From Escherichia phage ECML-359: a DNA stretch of 64,000 nucleotides. This document shows positions 1 to 52,764 of the stretch, piece after piece (position 1 is the first letter of the stretch; every line of letters begins with the position of its first letter). Below the pieces are notes generated by a model. It saw nothing but the letters and a program-made list of their open reading frames with translations. It was not told the DNA's origin and made no database searches. Both the position numbers and the translations under genes were made by a program. The stretch lies in the sequence record OL631482.1; one strand, 5' to 3'.

Positions 1-945
1 AATCCATTTGCATCGACCACAGAAACAGTGTTATCTGATGTTCTGCAAGAAGGTCTTATTGCATCGACTATTCGTTTAGTTCCTGATGCTGCACACACCG
101 AAAAATTCGAAGCTGGTGATGTTGAAATTAGCAATGCTGTATTCCAGGTTAATAAATGGAATGCTCCGGTTAAAACACGTAAATTGAAAACTGCATTAAC
201 TGTTGAACTTGCTCAGGATATGGAAGCAAATGGTTTTAACGCTCCTGCATTCTTGGAAGACCTGCTTGCCACTATTATGGCAGATGAAATTAACAAAGAT
301 GTTCTTCAGTCTCTTATTACCGTTTCCAAGCGTTATAAAGTAACTGGTGTTTCTGACAATGGCACCATCGATTTAACATACGATGCAGCCCCAGAAGGTG
401 CACGTAAACTGTACGAACTGGTTTGCGAAATGAACTCCGAAATTCAGAAAACTACATCTTATTCCGGTACCTTTGTTGTTGCCTCTAGCCGTGTTGCTGC
501 TATGTTGGCCGGTTCTGGTTGGTTGAAACACAGGCCAGAAGACGAACAGTGGCTCCCCGAAACAGCGTACGGTTATTTGATTAATGGCCTCCCTGTATTC
601 TGTGATGTTAACAGTCCATTGGATTATGTAACTGTTGGTGTTAAAGAAAATTACGGCGGAAACGAAGTCGTAGGCTCAATTTTCTATGCTCCTTATACCG
701 AAGGCCTGGACTTGGATGATGAAGAGCACGTTGGTGCGTTTAAGGTCATTGTGGACCCAGACAGCTTGCAGCCATCTATCTCTCTGATGGTTCGTTACGC
801 ACTTTCAGCTAACCCGTACACCGTTGCTAAAGACGATAAAGAAGCTCGTATTATCGATGCAACCAATATGGATTTAATGGCCGGTCAGAGCAATATGTCT
901 TATCTGCTCGGTGTTAAACTTCCGCCAATCATTTATGAGGCGTAA
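1..945 (+). CDS. gp24-like head vertex protein, paralog copy 1 (5' partial; reading frame open from window edge)
   Basis: Frame 1 is open from nt 1 and ends TAA 943-945. The product aligns colinearly with the C-terminal ~300 aa of the adjacent 427-aa gp24 ORF at roughly 60% identity (RKLKTALTVELAQDMEANGF, ANPYTVAKDDKEARIID, LGVKLPP). Confidence 0.8.
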   Translation, partial: NPFASTTETVLSDVLQEGLIASTIRLVPDAAHTEKFEAGDVEISNAVFQVNKWNAPVKTRKLKTALTVELAQDMEANGFNAPAFLEDLLATIMADEINKDVLQSLITVSKRYKVTGVSDNGTIDLTYDAAPEGARKLYELVCEMNSEIQKTTSYSGTFVVASSRVAAMLAGSGWLKHRPEDEQWLPETAYGYLINGLPVFCDVNSPLDYVTVGVKENYGGNEVVGSIFYAPYTEGLDLDDEEHVGAFKVIVDPDSLQPSISLMVRYALSANPYTVAKDDKEARIIDATNMDLMAGQSNMSYLLGVKLPPIIYEA

Positions 946-2229
946 ATGCAAAAGATTAATGCACTAATTCACGAATCAACATTAACGGCGGCCAACCAGG
1001 TCGCCCGTCCTAATTTGCTTTCTTATACCCAGGCTACGAATAAACGAATTTTTAAAGCACTCGTGGCCGAACAGAAAACTACCCAGCCTGTTGCAGCCCT
1101 GTATGGTGTTCGTGTTCTGAACCCAGATGATAAAATGACTTATCTCGGTGGAGCAACATTTGCAGGTCAGATTGGTATGTTCGAGCGTAAGAATATTCCA
1201 GAATTTACAAACAAAGACGAAGCTTATGCAGTCGGCGATATGTTCCAGTTTGAAAGTGTTGTGTTCAAAGTTTTGGAAGCATCCCCATTCGCCGGTACAC
1301 TCGAAACTGATTTAGGTGAAGTTATTTCTGAAGCCATTGCTGCTGGGCATATAAGAATGATGTCAGATGCTGCTTTCACTGATAAATTTGAAAAGGGGCA
1401 TCCTGAAATTGCTGAAGCTGGTTTTCGTATCGATAAATGGCAGACTGAAGTTAAATCCAGAAAGTTGAAAACTTCTTTAACTGTCGAGCTTGCCCAGGAC
1501 CTGGAAGCAAACGGTTTTGATGCAACAGACTTCATCGATAATATTCTCGGCATTCAAATGGCAGAGGAAATTAATAAGGATGTACTGCAATCTCTTATTA
1601 CTGTTAGTTCCCGTTTCAAGGTGCAAGGTGTTTCTGAAAAAGGTGTATTGAATCTTACTGACCCGAAATATGATAACGCACAGGACCGCGCACGAACCCT
1701 GTATTATTATATGTGTGAAATGAATTCTGCAGTTCAACGTCAGACTTCGTTTGCTGGTACATATGCAGTTGCTTCTTCCCGTTGTGCAGCTATTTTAGCC
1801 GCTTCTGGCTGGGTTGAGAAAAAGGAAGACCAGGATGAATTGGCCTATGGTGTTCTGAAGAACGGTTTGCCTCTTTACGCTGATATGAATAGTCCATGCG
1901 ATTATGTTATTGTTGGTGTAAATGCAGATATGGGTGAAGGTCAGACGGTCGCATCTTTATATTATGCGCCTTATACGGAAGGACTTAGCGAAGTTGATGA
2001 TGAGGGGGATACCTCGGTTGGGGAATTCAAGGTTATTGTTGACCCTGAAAGCTTACAGCCTACGGTTGCACTGTTAGCTCGTTATGCTTTGACTGCAAAC
2101 CCTTACACCGTTGCTAAAGATGATAAAGAAGCTCGCCTTATTGATGGAGCTGATATGGATAAGATGGCTAACCAAAGCCAATTGAGTTCTTATCTTGGCG
2201 TTAAACTTCCACCGCTGGAAAAAGAATAA
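946..2229 (+). CDS. 24: head vertex protein gp24
   Basis: 427 aa, same length as T4 gp24 and the expected position before rnlB. ATG lies directly after the stop of the preceding paralog. Confidence 0.85.
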   Translation: MQKINALIHESTLTAANQVARPNLLSYTQATNKRIFKALVAEQKTTQPVAALYGVRVLNPDDKMTYLGGATFAGQIGMFERKNIPEFTNKDEAYAVGDMFQFESVVFKVLEASPFAGTLETDLGEVISEAIAAGHIRMMSDAAFTDKFEKGHPEIAEAGFRIDKWQTEVKSRKLKTSLTVELAQDLEANGFDATDFIDNILGIQMAEEINKDVLQSLITVSSRFKVQGVSEKGVLNLTDPKYDNAQDRARTLYYYMCEMNSAVQRQTSFAGTYAVASSRCAAILAASGWVEKKEDQDELAYGVLKNGLPLYADMNSPCDYVIVGVNADMGEGQTVASLYYAPYTEGLSEVDDEGDTSVGEFKVIVDPESLQPTVALLARYALTANPYTVAKDDKEARLIDGADMDKMANQSQLSSYLGVKLPPLEKE

Positions 2230-2249
2230 GGGCCTTGCGGCCCTTTTTT
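2230..2249. terminator. bidirectional rho-independent terminator between convergent genes 24 and rnlB
   Basis: GGGCC-ttgc-GGCCC hairpin flanked by T-runs on both strands. Confidence 0.6.
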
Positions 2250-3255
2250 ATTCACTAATTAATGCAATCCATACATGTCTTAATGTTTCTTTTACATTTG
2301 CGATAAGTTGCTTTTTAACTTCAACAGGATTTTCTGTCTGGGTTAATTCAAGTCCTTCACGACCCGCTTCTTCCAGGATATCCTGAACAGTCAAACCCAT
2401 TACCTTCCCAAAATCCTTCGGCGATACTTCCCCAATCTTACTGATAACATTGTTAATACGGTTGACAGTCACATAATCAGTAAACTTCCATAAAACATCC
2501 AGGTCTTCCTGGGACAACACAACAGCAGCCTTAATAGGCTTATCAGACTTTTTCTTTTCGCTGAATTTAGAGTTCTTACATTTAATCGCTACACGCTCGC
2601 CGTTAGGTAACCATGCAGGAACATCAGGTTTTAATACAAATCCTTCAGCAGTGAATACTTTACCTTCCACCTTTGCATCAAAATCAGTGGTATTTGCTGT
2701 AGTCAATCCTGCGTTATCCACTGTAAAATTGTAATCAGGGACCACAGAATCCAGGTCATTAGGGAGCTTAATCAAGTCTTCAAAGCTTCCGGTAGCCAGG
2801 CGCGGAGCAACTTTAAACTTATGAATAATACAAAAGGCTTCCATCAGTGTGTCAGTCAGGACGGATTCAGTTCCATCTTCTTTAGTAACGCGAATATCAA
2901 ACACATAAAAATCTTTATCACCGTAATCCACATTCTTCTGGATACCTGCCCCGGCAAACTCACCATAAATCTGATATGCCTGGTAATTAATATCCTGCAA
3001 AAGTTTCTGCACAGATTTAATAGAATCTGCGTAGTTCTTTAATACAATTTCATAACCATAGAAATCTTCTGCAGGTAGGATAGGTCCAGTGCGTTTCGCG
3101 CATGTCACATTGTCTTGTTCAATGATTAATGAAAAGTTGGTACCATGAATTTTCTCACGAGCTACCCATTCACCGCTGGTGAAGCCTTGCAGGCGAATCT
3201 TTTCAATGAACTTGTTATTATAGTGATTTTCAAGGCTGTTGTATTTCTTAAACAT
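2248..3255 (-). CDS. rnlB: RNA ligase 2
   Basis: 335 aa with nucleotidyltransferase motif KIHGTNFS and strong resemblance to T4 Rnl2 (MFKKYSSLENHYN...). Syntenic with T4. Confidence 0.85.
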
Positions 3256-3352
3256 AATCTCTCACTTTTGATGTTATAAATATCATTATAAATTAGACCC
3301 GCTATACTTTCTTTCTTTGAAAGGAATTAATAGTCACAAAGGGTCTAGAACC

Positions 3353-3380
3353 ATTATACCGCATTTTTATTTGAAGCAAA
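3353..3380 (-). promoter_or_regulatory. T4-type middle promoter (MotA box TTTGCTTCA, 13-nt spacer, TATAAT) upstream of rnlB
   Basis: Minus strand reads cccttTTTGCTTCAaataaaaatgcggTATAATggttctagaccc. Matches the MotA-box consensus at about -30 with a sigma70 -10. Confidence 0.5.
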
Positions 3381-3385
3381 AAGGG

Positions 3386-3649
3386 TCAGAATTTTACATA
3401 CAGCATTGGCTTGGATTCTTGCCAATCATAATTCCAGGTAAAAGATGTAAATTTTTCTGCTCGCAGAAATTCAGATATCTTTGCGCGGTTTCCTTCTTCA
3501 TACTCTTTTTCAGAAACTGCCATATTAACAGCATCTTTGCCGTTCTCGGCGGCGGCAATAGCCACTTTGCGAAATATAGAAATAAAGTCATTTGCAACTT
3601 TATCTTGTGACTCTTTGGCTATTTGGCGTAGTTCTTCTGCGAATGTCAT
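3386..3649 (-). CDS. hypothetical protein (T4 24.2 position)
   Basis: 87-aa ORF in the T4 24.2 position. Confidence 0.5.
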   Translation of the reverse strand: MTFAEELRQIAKESQDKVANDFISIFRKVAIAAAENGKDAVNMAVSEKEYEEGNRAKISEFLRAEKFTSFTWNYDWQESKPMLYVKF

Positions 3650-3849
3650 TTCTTCACCTTTTTGTTATTCAAACGTTTACGATAAACAATCTTTTCTTTC
3701 GCTTTAAATTTAGCTTTGGCTTGTTCTACATCAACCCAGGCCTTTGCCATCTCTTTAGCAGTCCCGCCTAATACCTTGGCGATTTCAATAAATGTCATAC
3801 CAGATTCATGCAGAAAATGTACTTTAACCTTATCCATAATGATTCTCAT
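3646..3849 (-). CDS. hypothetical small basic protein (T4 24.3 position)
   Basis: 67-aa ORF with a lysine-rich C-terminus; its stop overlaps the downstream start. Confidence 0.5.
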   Translation of the reverse strand: MRIIMDKVKVHFLHESGMTFIEIAKVLGGTAKEMAKAWVDVEQAKAKFKAKEKIVYRKRLNNKKVKK

Positions 3850-3984
3850 GTTGAGTTAGTGAAGCTATCTTAACATGGAATTTTTAACTTGTAAACATGA
3901 TTTTTATGCCAGATGAACAATTGCATGGTATGGTCACAAAGACTCACTAGAGAAGGGTCCAGGTAACATTTGCCCAGTACCATA

Positions 3985-4012
3985 AAAATAAAGGGACCAA
4001 AGGTCCCTTTTT
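3985..4012 (-). terminator. rho-independent terminator downstream of hoc
   Basis: GGGACC-aaa-GGTCCC hairpin followed by a T-run on the minus strand. Confidence 0.6.
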
Positions 4013-4014
4013 AA

Positions 4015-5148
4015 TTAATAAACGTAATCGTATATAATACCAGTTTCTAAAGCGGTGCGATGAATAACTCGACCATTACGAGATTCTTGTACATCAACCT
4101 CTGGATAGTCGGTAATCATTTTTTGAAGTGTGTATCGGTGCAAATAATACGGGCTATCCGGGTCATCAGTTTTCCAGTCTTGGCCGGCAAGAGTCATTTT
4201 CTGAATTTCATCCATAACCCACCAACCACACCAGATATAAGCTGAATTACGTACTGGCAATGGGTGAATATATGGTAATTCGCCATCTGGAACTGGTGCG
4301 ACTTTAGCCGTGACTGTTACATTACCAGTTTTGGTAACGGTTACAGGGTTATAATCTGTAGCAGATACAACAACAGAAACTTCAATTAACTGGGAACCTT
4401 CGGCGCTTGTATCGATTGCTAAAGTATCCGTGGTACCAGCGACTGGTGAACCATCTTTCTTCCAAGAATAGGCAAAAGTAGCACCAGCAGGCGCACCGGC
4501 TACAGTAGCTTTAAAAGAAGCCGGAGTTCCTTCAGGAACATTAATAGAGGTCGGTGCTAAAGTAACAGAAACACCCGACATAGTTTTCTTAACAAAAGTT
4601 ACCGCAGCTCCTTTAGATGCGGTGCCATTATTATAATCGGGTGCAGAAACAGTAACTTCACAGTTCAATGTATAATTTGCTTCTGCTGATTCGGTGACGG
4701 TAATAGTTTTACCAGTTTGACCTGCGATTACGCTAGTGTTACGTTTCCAAACGTAAGCGATTGTTGCACCAGAAGGAGCGCCTGTCACGTTAGCAGTAAC
4801 AACTTGAGATTGCCCCACTTCTTTAGTAACAGAGGCAGGGTCTAAAGTCAATGTAATAGCAGGCATTGTTTTATTCTGGATAGTTAAAGTTGTCTCAGCC
4901 TCAGCAGTTTCCGGTTCACCGTCTGCCGGAGTGGTAGTTGCAACAACTTTAATAGTCTTACTGCCTGCTGGGCCAACAGCGACATAAGTCATTGCTGCAG
5001 TCACAGAAGATTGAGGAACGCCATCAACGGTCCATACAAATGATTCAACACCTTCAGCTGCAGCGCCAGACCCGGTTGCAGTGAAATTGGTTGTTGCTCC
5101 AATAACGGCCGTAGCCGCCAAAGGAGCAATAGCTACGGTATAAGCCAT
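4015..5148 (-). CDS. hoc: Hoc, highly immunogenic outer capsid protein (tandem Ig-like domains)
   Basis: 377 aa with repeated beta-rich T/V/A-rich modules and a conserved C-terminus (YIHPLP...WCGWWVMDEIQKMT...YYLHRYTLQKM) matching T4 Hoc. Confidence 0.85.
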   Translation of the reverse strand: MAYTVAIAPLAATAVIGATTNFTATGSGAAAEGVESFVWTVDGVPQSSVTAAMTYVAVGPAGSKTIKVVATTTPADGEPETAEAETTLTIQNKTMPAITLTLDPASVTKEVGQSQVVTANVTGAPSGATIAYVWKRNTSVIAGQTGKTITVTESAEANYTLNCEVTVSAPDYNNGTASKGAAVTFVKKTMSGVSVTLAPTSINVPEGTPASFKATVAGAPAGATFAYSWKKDGSPVAGTTDTLAIDTSAEGSQLIEVSVVVSATDYNPVTVTKTGNVTVTAKVAPVPDGELPYIHPLPVRNSAYIWCGWWVMDEIQKMTLAGQDWKTDDPDSPYYLHRYTLQKMITDYPEVDVQESRNGRVIHRTALETGIIYDYVY

Positions 5149-5157
5149 AATAAACCC

Positions 5158-5823
5158 TTATTTTAAAGTGACAAAAGATGAGTTACGAGTTTCTCGTACT
5201 AGAACAGACCCATTACGATTGATGTAATAAATCAAACTGAATAGGGTTTGATGCGCGGTGGGATGTGGGAAAGCAGTTGGACGTTCTTTCCAATCCGGAG
5301 TCTCAGAAATCCACTGATAAATCCACCATGGAACAGTACAGAATCCAGGGTTCTTGCCAATAAGCATAAGATTTGGACTAAAGTTTTTTGGTAGAGCAAA
5401 TACAGGTTTTTCAGATTCGATAACCTTAGCAACAGCTGCTTCGAACTTTTCTTCGATAAAAGGAACATCTTCTTCGACCAAAACAACTGGTTCTTCGATT
5501 TCAACAACTTCAACCTTTGCTTCGGTTAGAGCATCAAATAAGAGTTTAGCTTCTTCTTTAGCTGACTCATCGCCATCAAATTTAGCACCTGACAATTCAT
5601 CGTCAGCATCAATAAGGTCGGTGATGCTCAGGCCTTCATTATCATCAGGCATAGGCATGTCAGCAAATGCTTTAAGTCCTGCTTCCAGGTCAGCCAACAT
5701 ATTATCAAAGGTTTTTGTTTTCTTAACATCAACGCCAAGTGATGCTGCGTATTCGGCTAATTTTTCTTTGGCTTCTTTTTTCTCGAGGACACGAATTTCC
5801 TCAATGTAGTTCTTGTCAATCAT
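5158..5823 (-). CDS. inh: Inh-like inhibitor of prohead protease
   Basis: 221 aa with an acidic, coiled N-terminal half, in the T4 inh position between hoc and uvsW. Confidence 0.65.
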   Translation of the reverse strand: MIDKNYIEEIRVLEKKEAKEKLAEYAASLGVDVKKTKTFDNMLADLEAGLKAFADMPMPDDNEGLSITDLIDADDELSGAKFDGDESAKEEAKLLFDALTEAKVEVVEIEEPVVLVEEDVPFIEEKFEAAVAKVIESEKPVFALPKNFSPNLMLIGKNPGFCTVPWWIYQWISETPDWKERPTAFPHPTAHQTLFSLIYYINRNGSVLVRETRNSSFVTLK

Positions 5824-5841
5824 GATGAACCTCGGTTAGTG

Positions 5842-5849
5842 TATAAATA
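5842..5849 (+). promoter_or_regulatory. T4 late promoter TATAAATA upstream of uvsW
   Basis: Exact TATAAATA about 29 nt upstream of the uvsW ATG. Confidence 0.6.
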
Positions 5850-5877
5850 TAGATATATTTATTACCTTGGAATCATC

Positions 5878-7377
5878 ATGGATATTAAAATCAACTTTCT
5901 AAATTTTAGTCACGTGCATGTTGAATGTGAAGATGGAATCTTCTACGAACTCCGTGATTACTTCAGCTTCGAAGCTGAAAACTATCGCTTCAATCCAAAA
6001 TTCAAGCAGGGAGTTTGGGACGGACGAATCCGCCTCCTGGATTACAATCGTAAATTACCATACGGTTTGGTTAATCAAATTAAAAAGTTCGCTGACCAGT
6101 TTGGCTATTCATTCTGGATTGACCCACAAATCACCGAGAAAGAAGAAATCTCTCGCGAAGAATTCGACAAATGGGTCGAGTCAAAAGAAATCTATTCAGG
6201 CAATACTAAGATAACGCCCCATTGGTATCAATCTGACGCCGTATATGATGGTCTGGTCAACAGAAGAAAGATTCTGAACTTACCTACGTCTGCGGGTAAA
6301 AGCCTCATCCAGGCGCTTCTGGCGCGATATTATCTCGAGAACTATGAAGGCAAGGTGCTTATCCTTGTTCCTACAACCGCGCTTGTTGACCAGATGATTA
6401 ATGACTTTGTTGATTATCGGCTTTTCCCTCGTGAAGCTTGTCTGGGTATTCGTTCCGGGACTAAACGCGATTCTGATGCGATGATTTATGTATCGACTTA
6501 TCAGACGGCTGTAAAACAACCTAAAGAATGGTTTGAACAGTTCGGCCAGTTTATGAATGACGAATGTCACATGGCTACAGGTAAATCAATTTCGACGGTT
6601 ATCGAAGGCCTTACGAATTGTATGTTTAAATTTGGTCTGTCAGGCTCACTCCGTGACGGCAAAGCCAACCTTATGCAATATATGGGTCTGTTTGGTGATA
6701 TCTTTAAACCAGTATCAACATCTAAATTGATGGAAGACGGTCAGGTCACCGACCTTAAAATAAATAGTATTTTCCTTCGTTATCCTGATGAATTTACCGT
6801 TAAAATGAAAGGTAAAACTTATCAGGATGAAATTAAGGTAATTACAAAAGCTACACGCCGAAATAAATGGGTAACAAATCTTGCTCTCAAGCTTGCTAAA
6901 AAAGATGAAAACGTCTTTTTGATGTTTAAGAATATCGAGCATGGCAAATCGATGTTTGAAATGCTTAAGGAAGCTGGTCATGAGAAAGCGTATTATGTTT
7001 CCGGGGAAGTTGATACCGAAACCCGTAATGCTCTGAAGGTCATGGCAGAGAATGGAAAAGGAATTATCGTTGTAGCTTCATATGGTGTATTCTCGACGGG
7101 GATTTCCGTTAAAAACCTCCATCACATTATTTTCGCCCACCCGGTCAAGTCAAAGGTAATTGTACTTCAGACAATTGGTCGTGTACTTCGAAAACATGAA
7201 TCTAAATCGACCGCAAACGTGTGGGACATTGTGGATGATATGGGGGTCAAACCCAAATCAGCAAACGCTAAAAAGAAATATGTTCATATTAACTTTGCGC
7301 TTAAACATGCATTAGAACGTATTCAGCGGTATGCAGACGAACAATTCAATTATGTAATTAAACAGGTGGAAATATAA
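5878..7377 (+). CDS. uvsW: UvsW recombination/repair helicase (SF2)
   Basis: Starts MDIKINF as in T4 UvsW (MDIKVHF); Walker A PTSAGKS and helicase motifs. The ORF-track start at 5839 is a GTG artefact; 5878 is the first ATG. Confidence 0.9.
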   Translation: MDIKINFLNFSHVHVECEDGIFYELRDYFSFEAENYRFNPKFKQGVWDGRIRLLDYNRKLPYGLVNQIKKFADQFGYSFWIDPQITEKEEISREEFDKWVESKEIYSGNTKITPHWYQSDAVYDGLVNRRKILNLPTSAGKSLIQALLARYYLENYEGKVLILVPTTALVDQMINDFVDYRLFPREACLGIRSGTKRDSDAMIYVSTYQTAVKQPKEWFEQFGQFMNDECHMATGKSISTVIEGLTNCMFKFGLSGSLRDGKANLMQYMGLFGDIFKPVSTSKLMEDGQVTDLKINSIFLRYPDEFTVKMKGKTYQDEIKVITKATRRNKWVTNLALKLAKKDENVFLMFKNIEHGKSMFEMLKEAGHEKAYYVSGEVDTETRNALKVMAENGKGIIVVASYGVFSTGISVKNLHHIIFAHPVKSKVIVLQTIGRVLRKHESKSTANVWDIVDDMGVKPKSANAKKKYVHINFALKHALERIQRYADEQFNYVIKQVEI

Positions 7378-7610
7378 TGAAATCCTTTGAAGAAATTATG
7401 TACGAAGCATCAATTGAAGGCTTTATGGCTAAGATTGGTTCCTGTCAGACCATGGACGGTCTGAAGGAGTTGGAAGGCTATTATAAAAAACGCAGCAAAG
7501 AAGCTGAACTAAAAGATTCCGATGATATCAGTGTTCGTGATGCTCTTGCCGGTAAACGCGCCGAGCTTGAGGATATGGACGAAGACGAAGACGAAGACGA
7601 AGATTTCTAA
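7377..7610 (+). CDS. uvsW.1: UvsW.1 small acidic protein
   Basis: 77 aa with a DMDEDEDEDEDF tail; TAATG overlap with the uvsW stop. Confidence 0.7.
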   Translation: MKSFEEIMYEASIEGFMAKIGSCQTMDGLKELEGYYKKRSKEAELKDSDDISVRDALAGKRAELEDMDEDEDEDEDF

Positions 7611-43678: not shown

Positions 43679-46600
43679 ATGGCCGATATTTTAAAACCAG
43701 CATTCAGAGCAACATCCGGTCTCGATGCTGCTGGTGAGAAAGTCATTAATGTCGCAAAAGCTGATTACTCAGTTTTATCAGACGGCGTTAACGTAGGTTT
43801 CTTTATAGAAGAAAACACAGTTCAACAATATGATGCAACACGCGGATACAAAAAGAACTTTGCAGTTATTAATGATAACCGTATTTGGGTTGCTCAACGT
43901 GATATTCCGGCACCAGCTGGAGCATTTACCCCTCAGTATTGGTTAGCAACTCGTACTGACCCGAAATGGGAAACTGTTGCATCTCCAACTCGTCAGCTTA
44001 GCTCCGGGGAATTTATCGCAGTCGACTCAGCTGCAAGCTTTACCACATTTACATTGCCTCCGAACCCGACTGATGGTGATACCATCGTTATTAAAGATAT
44101 CGGCGGTAATACCGGTTATAATGAAATTAAAATCCAGTCAAGCAACGTGCCTGGCCAAGGTAACCAAAAGATTGTTCGCTTTGGTAATCAGTATTCAGAA
44201 GTTTTAATTACCAAACCATTCTCTTATAACATGCTTATCTTTTCAAACCGCTTATGGCAATTTTGGGAAGCAGGTAACGAAGAACGTGGTATCAGAGTAG
44301 AACCGTCGACCGGACGTTTCCATGCACAAGCTGGCGACTTTATTATGCGTCGTTATACAACTGGTGCACCGATTACTTTCATTCTTCCTAAGTATGCAAA
44401 CCAGGGTGATATTGTCAAATCTGTTGATATCGATGGCATGGGGCCAACGTTCCACCTGATGGTTGAAACCTTTGACACCAGTTCCAGTCTTGGTAAAGCT
44501 GGCCAGCATCAAATGGAATTCCGTACCACAGGTGATGGTTTCTTCGTTTATAATGCTGCCGAAAAACTCTGGTATGTTTGGGACGGTGATTTTAAAACTC
44601 GTCTTCGCGTTATTCGCGACAGCGTTAAACTTTTACCAAACGAAAGTGTCATTGTATTTGGCGAAGATAACTCAACTCCAGCAACGATTAATATCGATTT
44701 GCCAACTAATGTTTTGCAAGGCGACATTGTTAAAATTGCATTGAACTATCTCCGTAAATCACAGACTGTTAATATAAGAGCTGCTGTTGGCGATAAGATT
44801 GCAACTGACATTAAATTACTGCAATTCCCTAAACGTTCCGAGTATCCACCAGATACAACTTGGGTGCTGGTTGATTCATTGACCTTTAATGGCAACATCA
44901 GTTATACTCCGGTTATTGAATTATCATATGCAGAAGATACAGTGTCTGGAACAAGTTATTGGGTTGTCGCTCAGAACGTCCCGACTGTCGAACGAGTTGA
45001 CTCATTAAATGATTCCACGCGTGCACGTCTTGGTGTTATTGCTCTGGCAAACCAGACTCAGGCAAACGTTGACCATGAAAATAACCCAGAAAAAGAACTC
45101 GCAATTACCCCTCAGACTTTAGCCAACCGTGTTGCTAAAGAGAACCAACGAGGCATTGCCAGAATCGCAACGACTGCCCAAGTAAATCAGAACAGTGATT
45201 TTGCATTTGTTGATGATGTAATTATTTCTCCGAAAAAACTCAATGAACGTACGGCAACAGAAACGAGACGTGGACTCGCAGAACTCGCCACACAGCAAGA
45301 AACCGATGCGGGTGTAGATGATACCACAATTATAACTCCAAAGAAACTGCAAGCTCGCCAGGGCTCAGAATCGCTATCCGGTATTGTAACTTACGTTTCA
45401 ACGACTGGTGCAACTCCTGCTGCTTCGCGTGAATTAAATGGTACAAACGTTTATAATAAAAATACGGTTAATCTGGTTGTTTCTCCGAAAGCTCTTGACC
45501 AGTACAAAGCTACTTACACTCAACAAGGTGCGGTTATTCTTGCGGTTGAAAGTGAAGTAATCGCTGGTACTTCTCAATCTGGCTGGGCAAACGCAGTCGT
45601 TACTCCAGAAATGTTGCATCGCAAAACTGCTCTTGATTCCCGTATCGGTTTAATCGAGATTGCTACTCAGGTTGAAACAGATGCAGGAACCGATTATACC
45701 AGAGCTGTGACTCCTAAAACGTTAAATGACCGTAAAGCATCAGAAACGTTAACCGGCATAGCCGAGATTGCTACGCAATCAGAATTTGATACTGGAACTG
45801 ATGATACTCGTATCTCAACTCCATTAAAAATTAAAAATAGATTTAATAATACTGCTCGTACTTCTGTTAATGCATTAAGTGGTTTAGTAGAAACAGGGAC
45901 GCTCTGGGACCATTATAGCCTGAATATTCTTGAAGCAAATGAAACTCAACGTGGTACAGCAAGATTAGCGACTCAGGGTGAAGTCAATACAGGCACTGAC
46001 GATAAAACAATCGTTACTCCGCTTAAATTGATGTCGAAAAAAGCCACTGAAAACGCCGAAGGTATTGTTCGCATCGCGACAAACACAGAAGCAACAGCAG
46101 GCACATCAAAAGTCTTGGCCATTAGTCCGTCTGCGCTGAAATATATTGCCCAAACGGAAACAACTTGGGAAGCATCTGAAACACTGCGTGGATTTGTTCG
46201 TTTATCTTCCGGTGCAGCTACTTCGGCCGCAACTACAACGACGGGCGCGGGATTTACATATGAAAATGGTGTGTATACCCCGGACCCAAGTAAACTGGTT
46301 AGCTATGCGAAATCTGGATATGCAGTTTCGCCTTACGAATTAAACCGCATATTGCAAAACTTCTTACCGATAAATGCGATGGCTGTTAATGCTGAAAAAC
46401 TGGATAACCTCGATTCGACCCAGTTTATTCGTCGTGATATTGCTCAGACCGTTGAAGGCGTATTAACCCTTACTAAGCAGACAAATATCTCTGCTCCGGT
46501 TGTATCGACGAGCACTGCGGTGTTTACTGATGTAACGGCTGGTACTTCGACGTTCGGAACTGTGAATGTTGTTAATGGAACTAACAAGTGGAAAATCACT

Positions 46601-47635
46601 GCTCCTTCCACCGGAACGACAATGACTATTGGTGATACGACTAACGTATTGACATTAAACACCGCCTCGGGTAATGCTGCAGTATTGAACAACCTTAGCG
46701 CCGGAAATGATGTTCAAGCCAAAAATAATTACGTTCTAAATGGTCGTACTATCGCAACCACGACGGGTGAAGTTTCTGGTGCAACTTTGTCTCTGGGTGA
46801 TAACTCACAGAATTTAGTGCTCAAAACTCTTGATGCTGGTAATATCATAGCAAATGGTGGCGGTGCATTTAAAGTTCTGACCGAGAAAAACGCAGTAGAA
46901 ATTGTTGATAGAAACTTTGTTAACCAGGCTGGTGATACAATGTCTGGTGTACTCCGTGTGAATGCTCCAGTCCGTGTATTCGGTACGAAACCAAGTCTTA
47001 TCGCACAAGCTCCGACTGCGGATACTGTTGGTTTCTGGTCTGTCGATATCAATGATGAACCGACTTATAGCCAGTTCCCTGGTTATTGGACAATGAAGTT
47101 AAAACGTCAAGTAAACATTGATACGGTTCAAACTAAACCTGCTGGGGTAACTGATGAAGTTTGGAATGCTTCTGGTTGGTTAACTGAAAACGGAACTTTT
47201 GCCTCGCCCGCTATTCGTTATCGTACTGATGATGGTACACTCGGTGATGAAGTATTAGGTAGCTCCGGACAGAAACTGCGCGGAACCTGGTTTGACTATT
47301 CAGTTCGTGATAAACAAATTAAATATCCTGGTACATTGACTCAGTTTGGTAATACGCTGGATTCGTGCTATCAAGATTGGGTTTGTTATCCAACTGGATT
47401 GAACGGTGGTACTATTCGTTATACTCGTACATGGCAGAAAAATAAATCAGCATGGACGACTTTCGCAATGGTTTATACCGCGGATAACCCTCCGTCTGCA
47501 GAGGATGTTGGCGCATTACCGGCTGACAACACAACGATGGGGAACTTAACCATTCTTGATTGGTTGCGTATCGGTAACGTGCGTATCATCCCAGACCCGA
47601 CCACTAAATCCGTTAAGTTTGAATGGATTGAATAA
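43679..47635 (+). CDS. 34: long tail fibre proximal subunit gp34
   Basis: 1318 aa with recurring ~35-aa motifs (E..RG.A.IAT..E...G.DD...I.P..L). Confidence 0.9.
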   Translation: MADILKPAFRATSGLDAAGEKVINVAKADYSVLSDGVNVGFFIEENTVQQYDATRGYKKNFAVINDNRIWVAQRDIPAPAGAFTPQYWLATRTDPKWETVASPTRQLSSGEFIAVDSAASFTTFTLPPNPTDGDTIVIKDIGGNTGYNEIKIQSSNVPGQGNQKIVRFGNQYSEVLITKPFSYNMLIFSNRLWQFWEAGNEERGIRVEPSTGRFHAQAGDFIMRRYTTGAPITFILPKYANQGDIVKSVDIDGMGPTFHLMVETFDTSSSLGKAGQHQMEFRTTGDGFFVYNAAEKLWYVWDGDFKTRLRVIRDSVKLLPNESVIVFGEDNSTPATINIDLPTNVLQGDIVKIALNYLRKSQTVNIRAAVGDKIATDIKLLQFPKRSEYPPDTTWVLVDSLTFNGNISYTPVIELSYAEDTVSGTSYWVVAQNVPTVERVDSLNDSTRARLGVIALANQTQANVDHENNPEKELAITPQTLANRVAKENQRGIARIATTAQVNQNSDFAFVDDVIISPKKLNERTATETRRGLAELATQQETDAGVDDTTIITPKKLQARQGSESLSGIVTYVSTTGATPAASRELNGTNVYNKNTVNLVVSPKALDQYKATYTQQGAVILAVESEVIAGTSQSGWANAVVTPEMLHRKTALDSRIGLIEIATQVETDAGTDYTRAVTPKTLNDRKASETLTGIAEIATQSEFDTGTDDTRISTPLKIKNRFNNTARTSVNALSGLVETGTLWDHYSLNILEANETQRGTARLATQGEVNTGTDDKTIVTPLKLMSKKATENAEGIVRIATNTEATAGTSKVLAISPSALKYIAQTETTWEASETLRGFVRLSSGAATSAATTTTGAGFTYENGVYTPDPSKLVSYAKSGYAVSPYELNRILQNFLPINAMAVNAEKLDNLDSTQFIRRDIAQTVEGVLTLTKQTNISAPVVSTSTAVFTDVTAGTSTFGTVNVVNGTNKWKITAPSTGTTMTIGDTTNVLTLNTASGNAAVLNNLSAGNDVQAKNNYVLNGRTIATTTGEVSGATLSLGDNSQNLVLKTLDAGNIIANGGGAFKVLTEKNAVEIVDRNFVNQAGDTMSGVLRVNAPVRVFGTKPSLIAQAPTADTVGFWSVDINDEPTYSQFPGYWTMKLKRQVNIDTVQTKPAGVTDEVWNASGWLTENGTFASPAIRYRTDDGTLGDEVLGSSGQKLRGTWFDYSVRDKQIKYPGTLTQFGNTLDSCYQDWVCYPTGLNGGTIRYTRTWQKNKSAWTTFAMVYTADNPPSAEDVGALPADNTTMGNLTILDWLRIGNVRIIPDPTTKSVKFEWIE

Positions 47636-49497: not shown

Positions 49498-52400
49498 ATG
49501 GCTACTTTAAAACAAATACAATTTAAAAGAAGTAAGGTTGCCGGCGTTCGTCCGGCGCCAACAGTTCTTGCTGAAGGTGAACTGGCTATCAACCTGAAAG
49601 ACCGCTTACTTTTTACTAAAGATGACACCGGCGCCATTATCGACCTTGGTTTTGCCAAAGGCGGTAATATTGATGGTAATGTTATTCATAACGGTAATTA
49701 CAATCAAACTGGTGATTATACCCTGAATGGTACTTTTACCCAAACTGGTGATTTTAATTTAACCGGCATTGCTCGTGTAACTCGCGATATTATTGCCGCG
49801 GGTCAGATAATGACTGAAGGTGGTGAACTTATTTCTAAGAGTGCATCGACTTCGCATCTTCGTTTTTTTGATGGTGCATCACGCGAACGCGGTATTATCT
49901 TTTCTCCTAACAATGCGGGTTTGACAACTCAGGTAGTTAATATACGAGTGCAAGATTATGCCGCTGGTAGCGAAAGCACTTACGCGTTTTCAGGCAATGG
50001 TCAATTTACTTCACCTGAAGTATCAGCATGGAAATCTATTTCATCCCCACAAATTCTGACTGATAAAGTTATTACAAATGGTAAGAAAGCTGGTGATTAT
50101 GATATCTATTCATTAGCAAATAATAATTCTAACACAGATAAAAATAATTTACGTGTTGTGCGTACTGATGCAGCCGCCGCAATGCTCCATGAAATTTGTG
50201 AAAATAACGGTATCAGTTGGTATTCTGGTTCAACCCCTACTGATTATATGTTATCTTTTGCTTATTCAGGTGGTTTTCAAGCTGGACATTCGATTGCAGT
50301 GGGTATGGAATCAGGGCCTATGACATATTCAGCCTTAGGTAAGGGTTCTATTGCTCTTGGTGATAATGACACCGGGTTAAAATGGTACCAAGATGGTTAT
50401 TTCTATGCAGTAAACAATGGTACGAGAACTTTCCTTTACAGCCCTGAATCAACTGTAAGCCTTAGAAAAATGGTCATGGGTTATTCTGTAAACGGTAACG
50501 ATTTAACTACGCCGCCGACAGAAAACTATGCGCTTGGTACCGTTGTTACTTATCATGATAATAATGCCTTCGGTGATGGACAAACTCTTTTAGGATATTA
50601 TCAAGGTGGAGCATATCACCACTATTTTCGTGGTAAAGGCACTACAAACATTAACACCACGGGTGGTTTGTTGGTTACTCCGGGTAATATCGATGTGATT
50701 GGCGGTTTAATTAATATCGACGGCCGCAGTAATGCTTCAACCTTACTGTTTAGTAGCTATACGTCTGGTCAAAGCTCTGTCGATAATATGAATATACGCG
50801 TTTGGGGCGATACTTTTACCACTGTAGACGGTACTCGCAAAAACGTAATGGAAATATCTGATGCTACTAGCTGGATGCAATATATTCAACGAACAACTGC
50901 TGGTAAAGTCGAATCGGTTCTAAATGGCTCCCAGATTGTTAATGAAAACCTGACCGTAGTAAAAAATGCTACATTTGATGGTACAATCAGCGCACATGGT
51001 GAAATTGCAGGTAATGCTGTTAATGCCCTTAGAATTTGGAACGACGATTACGGTGCTATTTTCCGTCGCTCAGAAGGAAGTCTTCATATTATTCCTACAG
51101 CGTTTGGTGAAGGACAGGGCGGTGATATCGGTCCACTTCGCCCATTTAGTATGGCTTTAGATACTGGTAAAGTTACTATTCCAGATTTACAATCAAGTTA
51201 CAATACGTTCGCAGCAAACGGCTATATTAAATTTGTTGGTCATGGGGCTGGTGCAGGCGGTTACGATATTCAATATGCACAAGCAGCTCCTATTTTCCAA
51301 GAAATTGATGATGCCGCAGTAAGTAAATATTATCCTATTGTTAAGCAGAAATTCTTACAAGGAAAAGCTGTTTGGTCTTTAGGTACTGAAATTAATTCCG
51401 GGACTTTTGTTTTACACCATCTTAAAGAAGACGGGACCGAAGGACATACCTCAAGATTTAATGCCGATGGTACAGTTAACTTCCCCGATAACGTGCAGGT
51501 TGGTGGTGGTGAAGCTACTATTGCCCGAAATGGTAATATCTGGTCCGATATTTGGAAAACGTTTACTTCAGCAGGCGATGTAACTAATATTCGCGATGCC
51601 ATTGCTACTCGTGTTGCTAAAGAAGGCGATACAATGACAGGCAAGCTGACAATAGAAGCCCCTGGTGATGCTTTAGTATTAAGAACAACTACAGGTAATA
51701 GTTCACATATCCGTTCTGATGTAAATGGTACCGGCAACTGGTATGTCGGTAAAGGTGGCAGCGATAATGGAATAGGCCTTTACAGCTATGCTACTAACTG
51801 TGGCCTGTATATCACCAATAACGGTGAATTCAACGTAGACCTTTCTGGTGCTGGTCTGGCAATGCAAATGAATTATTATCGCATGTATGTTAACGGTCGA
51901 GCATGGGTTAATACTCAAGGTCATGGTTACGGAAACCAATGGCAAACAGAAGCTCCTTATTTCGTTGACTTTGGTGAATCCGTTCCTAAAGATAGTTATA
52001 TGCCAATTATCAAAGGAAAAAGCACTCTAGCTACTGAAGGATATTCTACTAAAGCAGACTTCGGTATTATTCGATTAGGTGGAGCGGCTACCTGGGGTTC
52101 TGCTGTTATTCGTGTGGGTTCTGCTGAAAGCGGCGATGCAAGCCATCCTAATGCGATATACGTTTTTGGCGCCGACGGCACCTTAACCGCCCCTAATGCT
52201 TTGAATGCTGCGTCTCGAATGGGCATTGGTACATCATGTTCATTACCAAATGCTTCTATTGCTATTGGCGATAACGATACAGGTCTTGCTACTAGAGGTG
52301 ATGGTAGTCTAGGCGCGTATGCTAATGCGCAGAGTGTATTTTTCTGGGAAGCTGGCGGTATTACGACCGAGCAAAATAAGTTTCTAAACGTTAACGCCGG

Positions 52401-52764
52401 TATGTATGTTCGTGACAACATCGATGTTAACGACGTTTATATCCGTTCTGATATTCGCTGTAAGTCAGAAATTAAGCTTATAGAAAATGCCCAAGAGAAA
52501 TCTAAACTCTTAGGCGGTTATACTTATCTGCTTAAAAACTCTGTCACAGATGAAGTTAAACCGTCTGCTGGTTTAATTGCTCAGGAAGTTCAAGAAGTAT
52601 TGCCTGAACTTGTGACTGAAGATAAAGAGACCGGCTTACTTCGTTTAAACTATAACGGTATTATCGGTTTAAATACTGCTACTATCAACGAGCATACTGA
52701 CGAAATCAAGGAATTGAAATCTGAAATTGCTGAGTTGAAAGCATTAATTAAATCATTATTATAA
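49498..52764 (+). CDS. 37: long tail fibre distal subunit gp37 with C-terminal intramolecular-chaperone-like domain
   Basis: 1088 aa. C-terminus carries the SDxRxK-type motif ([13 protein letters not shown]) followed by a coiled-coil tail, typical of self-cleaving tail-fibre chaperone domains. Confidence 0.85.

Follow-up and report, generated by a model that had tools for sequence, protein, structure and literature searches.

A tandem pair of gene 24 paralogues, predicted to encode two capsid vertex proteins, in the T4-like Escherichia phage ECML-359

Phage T4 is the textbook case of a capsid in which the pentons have a protein of their own, descended from the hexamer protein: gp24 sits as pentamers at the 11 virion vertices other than the portal vertex, and is essential for viable heads unless bypassed by mutations in gp23. 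Here we describe two adjacent, same-strand gene 24 paralogues, 24-I and 24-II (copies I and II hereafter), found at the start of a 64,000-nucleotide stretch of Escherichia phage ECML-359 (sequence record OL631482.1; "the window" means this whole stretch). The gp23-gp24 relationship of T4-type phages goes back to a tandem capsid-gene duplication in which the downstream copy became specialised (PMC9958956), and by analogy the 24-I/24-II pair resembles a repeat of that process. The two events differ in that the older one left 22-26% identity (the value found between either copy and gp23) and proven roles in hexamers and pentamers, whereas copies I and II of one genome share 55% identity and any distinct roles are putative. 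The pair itself is already known: JS98- and VR20-type phages have it as "capsid vertex protein I/II", ECML-359 is a near-identical relative of them, and the sole difference from the annotated pairs (JS98, Bp7, VR5, VR20, UPEC07, MN01, STML-198, MY02) is that the window truncates copy I.

Annotated pairs occur in dozens of related phages, among them Gaprivervirus (VR20, UPEC07, MN01) and Dhakavirus (JS98, Bp7, VR5), and also in Gelderlandvirus STML-198 and the Marfavirus Klebsiella phage MY02, where GenBank labels them either "capsid vertex protein I/II" or as two genes both named "24" (as for both genes of JS98). The duplicated gene 24 of JS98 is reportedly mentioned in the paper on that genome. 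Over window positions 1-6000, DNA identity is 98.5% to Escherichia virus TH40 and 94-98% to other Gaprivervirus genomes (UPEC07, VR20, MN01, pEC-M719-6WT.2), and we assign the window, at this level of DNA similarity, to Gaprivervirus. In UPEC07 and VR20 the genes run 20, 67, 68, 21, 22, 23 (519 amino acids, aa), a small minus-strand open reading frame (ORF), vertex protein I (426 aa), vertex protein II (427 aa), rnlB, 24.2, 24.3, hoc, inh and uvsW; the window order is 24-I, 24-II, rnlB, 24.2/24.3, hoc, inh, uvsW, which is the T4 order save for the second gene 24. Gene 24 of T4 occupies the same place after gene 23 and before rnlB, and has the same late promoter, located here before copy I. T4 has one gene 24 (one gene in its record and one tblastn place, as the original prediction had it), whereas two are found here, of which copy II differs by L34R, Y57V, P244Q, E335Q and L415Y (T4 numbering) and by a distinct invariant C-terminus. 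Both copies align with T4 gp24 (PDB 1YUE, 5VF3, 7VS5, 8GMO) over their full length of 426-427 aa, including an L/I-x-E↓S motif after residue 10 (the arrow marks the cut).

The product of the partial first ORF and that of the second ORF (Table 1) aligned colinearly by BLASTP, residues 1-310 of the former against residues 113-424 of the latter (186/316 identical, or 59%, with 76% positives, E 8e-132). This alignment contained all four shared sequence blocks cited in the original prediction, whose claim of two adjoining same-strand gp24 paralogues at about 60% identity is borne out. Both products matched Pfam PF07068 (Gp23 family; E 1.7e-79 for 1-945 and E 1.9e-97 for 946-2229) and PHROG 138. The full first ORF, sought upstream by way of relatives, proved to be a complete gp24-type gene and not the 3' end of a gp23 gene of ~520 aa: the partial product is identical at 313 of 314 positions to residues 113-426 of the UPEC07 "capsid vertex protein" (complete, 426 aa), and the 5' 336 nucleotides (nt) of 24-I, together with the late promoter, lie upstream of the window. 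It had also been argued that this ORF was unlikely to be the gp23 C-terminus, and rightly so, since a gap-free alignment of 310 aa gives 69% identity to T4 gp24, against only 28% over 249 aa (gaps 16%) to UPEC07 gp23, which in UPEC07, VR20, JS98 and others is a separate 519-aa gene further upstream. For copy II, the protein is 100% identical to that of TH22 and 98.1% identical to "capsid vertex protein II" of VR25, and it matches the T4 gp24 structure 1YUE at 55% identity (E 4.3e-148, residues 1-424 against 1-423), the match to gp23 chains in the PDB being limited to residues 156-393 (E ~1e-12). Every gp24 was set apart from gp23 in the tree with 100% support, and the sizes of copy I (426 aa in UPEC07 and VR20) and copy II (427 aa) are those of a gp24 (~420-430 aa, lacking the N-terminal propeptide of 65 residues that gp23 has) as opposed to the 519 aa of gp23. 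At the sequence level, both copies thus have all the defining features of gp24.

Phylogenetically, the two copies belong to different and deeply separated groups. Neighbour-joining trees of 42 gp24 sequences (200 bootstraps, two distance corrections), rooted on the gp24s of RB43, Krischvirus and Aeromonas phages, recovered a type II clade that includes copy II of the window (100% bootstrap), and a core clade (100% bootstrap) gathering every copy I with the single-copy gp24s of T4, JS09, CC31/Karamvirus, Merlin, PEi20, PM2, 4S and EcS1. Copy II lies outside this core clade and never groups with its partner copy I; its clade attaches deep, as sister to the core, to the core plus Jiaodavirus/Tegunavirus, or to Acinetobacter phages. 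When the tree was rooted on gp23 instead, the type II clade fell at the base of all gp24s, a position that we treat as long-branch attraction because copy II is 55-65% identical to Tevenvirinae gp24s and only 41-45% to those of RB43, Krischvirus and Aeromonas phages. Copy I is 69-71% identical to T4 gp24 and copy II 56%, and the nearest single-copy gp24 to copy II is that of Jiaodavirus (63-66%). That Jiaodavirus gp24 might be the orthologue of copy II, with copy I lost and copy II kept, is a weak proposition, the two being sisters in 9-13 of 200 bootstraps.

Among the character columns of the alignment, copy II alone is derived in 16, the core clade (T4 included) is derived in two while copy II keeps the outgroup state, and in none do copy II and its partner copy I share a state that sets them apart from the remaining gp24s. 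Single-copy gp24s have the copy I residue at 14 of the 17 type-discriminating columns. In copy II, L34R and Y57V replace residues that are invariant in every other gp24 examined, E335Q replaces a residue found in all outgroups but one, and the residues Q244 and Y415 are found in no outgroup; the complete type II signature (R34, V57, Q244, Q335, Y415) is present in copy II of the window. This suggests that copy II is an old derived paralogue, older than the last ancestor shared by the core Tevenvirinae gp24s, T4 included, copy I being the predicted orthologue of T4 gp24. Copy II would later have been lost in, or exchanged out of, several lineages: counting verified single-copy phages (one place per record in the copy II tblastn search), at least two losses appear to be required, one in the T4/Mosigvirus/Karamvirus lineage and one in the PEi20 lineage, and the T4 lineage may thus have lost copy II.

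The ratio of non-synonymous to synonymous substitutions (dN/dS, Nei-Gojobori), taken for all three genes on the same phage pairs, was 0.04-0.13 for copy I, 0.007-0.076 for copy II (0.007 for UPEC07 against VR20) and 0.03-0.17 for gp23. Within-type identity was higher for copy II in most 30-residue windows, and at a threshold of at least 90% identity tblastn retained 59 copy II records and 29 copy I records. Across the same phages, copy II is the better conserved of the two; both genes appear to be functional, with an estimated purifying selection on copy II at least as strong as on copy I. Synonymous sites between copies I and II of one genome are saturated (proportion of synonymous differences, pS, 0.62-0.77), which therefore rules out a recent gene conversion between them.

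Broader searches indicated that the pair is widespread. With copy II, tblastn found 1,577 places in 1,451 T4-like records, and with copy I 1,567 places in 1,442 T4-like records, the excess of places over records therefore corresponding to ~125 records with two gp24-family places; at a threshold of at least 80% identity, 93 records were retained for copy II and 92 for copy I. A search of 5.8 billion proteins added 21 type II clusters (66-100% identity), one of which has a member from Erwinia phage FBB1, a phage in which a second gp24 is also present. On an FBB1-type contig and four metagenome contigs, gp24-I is directly followed by gp24-II, and gp23 precedes the pair in the three of these contigs that reach far enough upstream. 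Overall, the I-then-II order with an abutting or overlapping stop/start was kept in 12/12 genomes and contigs, drawn from Gaprivervirus, Dhakavirus, Gelderlandvirus and Marfavirus as well as the Erwinia FBB1-like contig and the four metagenome contigs.

A different arrangement was found in Escherichia phage P479 (MW269952, Gaprivervirus), whose gp23 is 98.3% identical to that of UPEC07 and in which the flanks of the gene-24 locus share 93-98% DNA identity with UPEC07. Between gp23 and rnlB this phage has a single 426-aa gp24 ORF (positions 3500-4780 of locus L025), unannotated in its record, and no copy II. This gp24 shares ~70% identity with copy I, and its nearest match (75%) is the Serratia 4S / PM2 / PEi20-type gp24. 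A chimera of copies I and II formed by unequal crossing-over was considered and rejected, as windowed protein and DNA comparisons show it to be type I-like throughout, and foreign. A single foreign gp24 on a near-identical backbone argues that the pair would be replaceable by one ordinary gp24, and hence not structurally obligatory. We propose that the pair as a whole may be functionally equivalent to one ordinary gp24, and P479 shows that phages exchange the gene-24 locus as a module.

At the protein level, the N-terminus reads MQKINALIHE↓ST in copy II, MAKINKLLRE↓ST in copy I and MAKINELLRE↓ST in T4 gp24, so that both copies carry a candidate L/I-x-E↓S site for the prohead protease gp21 after residue 10 (by motif match; I-H-E↓S at residues 8-11 in copy II), and in T4 the 10 N-terminal residues of gp24 are indeed cut off by this protease (PMC9958956, PMC9546572). 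Copy II keeps 141 columns that are at least 90% conserved in both types, and the length, isoelectric point and net charge of copies I and II are nearly equal. The C-terminus LGVKLPPLEK is invariant in copy II, which in the window ends in ...YLGVKLPPLEKE. The fixed type-specific differences fall in 7/12 cases within T4 residues 25-57. In T4 gp24, residues 26-29 of one subunit and the I-domain linker of the next subunit in the pentamer form a parallel beta pairing, and residues 11-20 extend onto the neighbouring hexamer (PMC9546572).

The expression signals around the pair are consistent with a single transcript. The T4 late promoter box TATAAATA was found ~27 nt ahead of the copy I start codon in 9/9 genomes checked, T4 included, and no such box occurs within window positions 1-2400. 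The same GAGG and stop/start junction as in the window (Table 1) was found in UPEC07, VR20, VR5 and STML-198, and from this abutting arrangement translation of copy II is expected to be coupled to the end of copy I. After copy II, a predicted bidirectional terminator lies between 24-II and rnlB, a convergent gene on the minus strand (2248-3255). A promoter before copy I alone, an abutting junction and a terminator after copy II together argue for one late, translationally coupled operon, in which copy II, apparently devoid of a promoter of its own, would depend on read-through and coupling.

Table 1. Features of the gene 24 pair in the window (positions counted from its first nucleotide)
Feature	Position	Strand	Remarks
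Gene 24-I (capsid vertex protein I), 3' 945 nt	1..945	+	Frame 1, no stop from base 1 until TAA at 943-945; 314 codons; encodes residues 113-426 of 426 aa
Shine-Dalgarno GAGG for 24-II	937..940	+	Inside the last 24-I codons, 5 nt before ATG; sequence TATGAGGCGTAAATG
TAA of 24-I (943-945) abutting ATG of 24-II (946-948)	943..948	+	Reads TAAATG
Gene 24-II (capsid vertex protein II), 427 aa	946..2229	+	ORF; full-length match to 1YUE
G+C-rich hairpin AAGGGCCTTGCGGCCCTT then TTTTTT, intrinsic terminator	2228..2251	both	Terminator scan

The interpretation that we favour, and regard as fairly probable, is a two-gene late operon encoding two vertex pentons, copy I being the orthologue of T4 gp24 and copy II an old derived paralogue. 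Late promoter, 24-I, 24-II and terminator would have both proteins made late from one mRNA, with translation of copy II coupled to the end of copy I. Keeping the prohead-protease site after residue 10, both would most likely be processed structural vertex proteins, assembled as gp24-type pentons into the 11 non-portal head vertices. Because most of the fixed differences between the types lie in the region (T4 residues 25-57) that includes the inter-subunit strand at residues 26-29, each copy probably forms its own homopentamers, which would give two kinds of vertices per virion, and copy II would have been sub- or neo-functionalised as a penton and would not be a spare. It is then tempting to speculate that the pentons are position-specific, with for example one paralogue at the apical vertex opposite the portal (5 copies) and the other at the ten shoulder vertices (50 copies), in a three-protein shell of gp23, gp24-I and gp24-II for which the single gene of T4 would be a secondary simplification by loss of copy II and not the ancestral state; as a whole, this extension strikes us as rather unlikely.

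Several observations weigh against two distinct vertex pentons of old common descent. The trees are neighbour-joining on corrected distances and not maximum likelihood, and the exact attachment point of copy II is not fixed. The pair appears to be dispensable as such, as judged from P479. The 55 gp24* subunits of T4 show no significant conformational difference among vertices (PMC9546572), so that a prolate shape by itself gives no reason to expect two pentons. The searchable literature yielded neither a proteome nor a mutant nor a structure for any phage with two gp24s, nor any direct evidence for copy II in virions, and a search of the PDB with copy II returned T4 gp24 as the only gp24 there. 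Finally, codon adaptation to gp23 usage is slightly lower for copy II (0.36-0.38) than for copy I (0.42-0.46), so that copy II may be expressed at a lower level.

Among the alternatives, the one that survives best, although we consider it only a tentative possibility, concerns the origin of copy II, which would be a xenologue: recombination would have placed a gp24 allele of some distant T4-like phage behind the resident gene 24, the resulting I-II cassette then spreading laterally. The position of copy II outside the core clade holding every copy I would be expected under such a scenario, as would an exchangeable locus, for which P479 with its foreign single gp24 between 93-98% identical flanks provides an example. 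Similarly, two-copy and single-copy phages are interleaved in the copy I tree, and three metagenomic lineages (contigs m21, m22 and m23) are placed differently in the two subtrees, forming a 94% clade in the copy II tree and being scattered in the copy I tree. However, no phage was found with type II as its sole gp24, the nearest single-copy gp24 (Jiaodavirus) being as distant as noted above, and the I-then-II order with its abutting junction is invariant. Moreover, the basal split between FBB1-like phages and the rest is the same in the copy I and copy II subtrees, which fits one old duplication followed by losses.

Two further alternatives concern the role of copy II and not its origin. In the first, which we consider unlikely, copy II is not a stable virion component and has another role in head morphogenesis, such as occupying vertices for a short time, triggering the gp21 prohead protease or acting as a decoy. 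In T4, protease activation is believed to start when gp24 binds to the prohead vertices, and a gp24-like protein could specialise in this step (PMC9958956); the lack of proteomic evidence for copy II in virions in the searchable literature also fits this role. Yet the conservation of all structural regions, the invariant LGVKLPPLEK and the retained cleavage site form the pattern of a shell subunit, and co-translation with copy I from one late mRNA likewise speaks against it. In the second, which we judge quite unlikely, copy II is redundant, adding dosage or serving as a spare, and could stand in for copy I at every vertex. Its length, isoelectric point, charge and conserved core are the same as those of copy I, and one gp24 is enough in T4 and P479, but the two proteins differ at 45% of their amino acids and copy II has 16 specific substitutions at otherwise conserved gp24 positions (including L34R, Y57V, E335Q, P244Q and L415Y). 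Redundant genes are normally lost from compact phage genomes, whereas copy II is retained with dN/dS at or below 0.08 in at least five lineages and evolves more slowly than copy I, a retention under constraint that therefore argues against redundancy.

The original prediction had also offered two functional or evolutionary readings. An effect of the two variants on the make-up of capsid vertices is plausible, but the other reading, a recent duplication undergoing divergence, did not hold. A recent tandem duplication in this phage lineage would account for two tandem, same-strand genes of equal length, but silent sites are saturated, the copies form separate deep clades (each at 100%) united by no shared derived character, purifying selection is strong, and at least five lineages of genus rank carry the pair, their basal splits being congruent, so that we regard such an event as extremely improbable. 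The weakest alternative, that the first ORF is the C-terminus of gene 23 and that gene 24 is hence not duplicated, has the common membership of Pfam PF07068 as its sole point in favour, and is ruled out by the near-identical complete 426-aa ORF downstream of a separate 519-aa gp23 in UPEC07 and by the ends of the proteins themselves (...RRVYVKGI for gp23, ...LPPIIYEA for the first ORF).

Around the pair, a 93-aa minus-strand ORF lies between gene 23 and 24-I in these phages (locus L001, 5271-5552, upstream of the window), at the place of the T4 homing endonuclease gene segD. In FBB1-like and some metagenomic two-gp24 phages, two plus-strand genes directly follow 24-II (L018, 2676-4506; L019, 4890-6427; L023, 5331-6856), encoding 332-352 aa (with a faint collagen-repeat match in 2/3 contigs) and 165-279 aa; these two extra genes, which might encode vertex-associated decorations, are not found in the phage of the window. 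Further downstream, the hoc region varies greatly between close relatives: the window encodes a 377-aa Hoc (4015-5148), MN01 has ORFs of 944 aa and 472 aa at this place (L024, 5447-9732), and in VR5 a "tail fiber" gene and another Hoc-like gene are present in addition (L007, 6793-8922). The uvsW gene is split in the window (5839-7377 and 7377-7610) into a helicase ORF of ~500 aa overlapping, by ATGA, a 77-aa ORF with an acidic DEDEDEDEDF tail; the same split is annotated in UPEC07, VR20 and JS98, whereas the T4 reference has one 587-aa uvsW, and the longest uvsW ORF of the window begins with a GTG at 5839, 12 codons ahead of where relatives have their annotated start. The ORF layout of the window is otherwise T4-like, from gene 24 through baseplate genes (25-29, 48, 54) to long tail fibre genes, the latter including ORFs of 1318 aa (43679-47635) and 1088 aa (49498-52764). 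Scans for tRNA genes and Rfam families across the whole 64-kb window returned no tRNA gene and no Rfam family at the gathering threshold.

About one in twelve sequenced T4-like phages thus has a second, strongly conserved penton paralogue, on which there are apparently no studies. Beyond the known annotations, what is new here is the suggested antiquity of the pair, the derived and more constrained nature of copy II, the possible loss of copy II by T4, and the replacement of the pair by a single gene in P479. If both proteins are in the shell, the pair would represent a further step in the specialisation of capsid subunits, and would offer a natural system for the study of vertex recognition during assembly.

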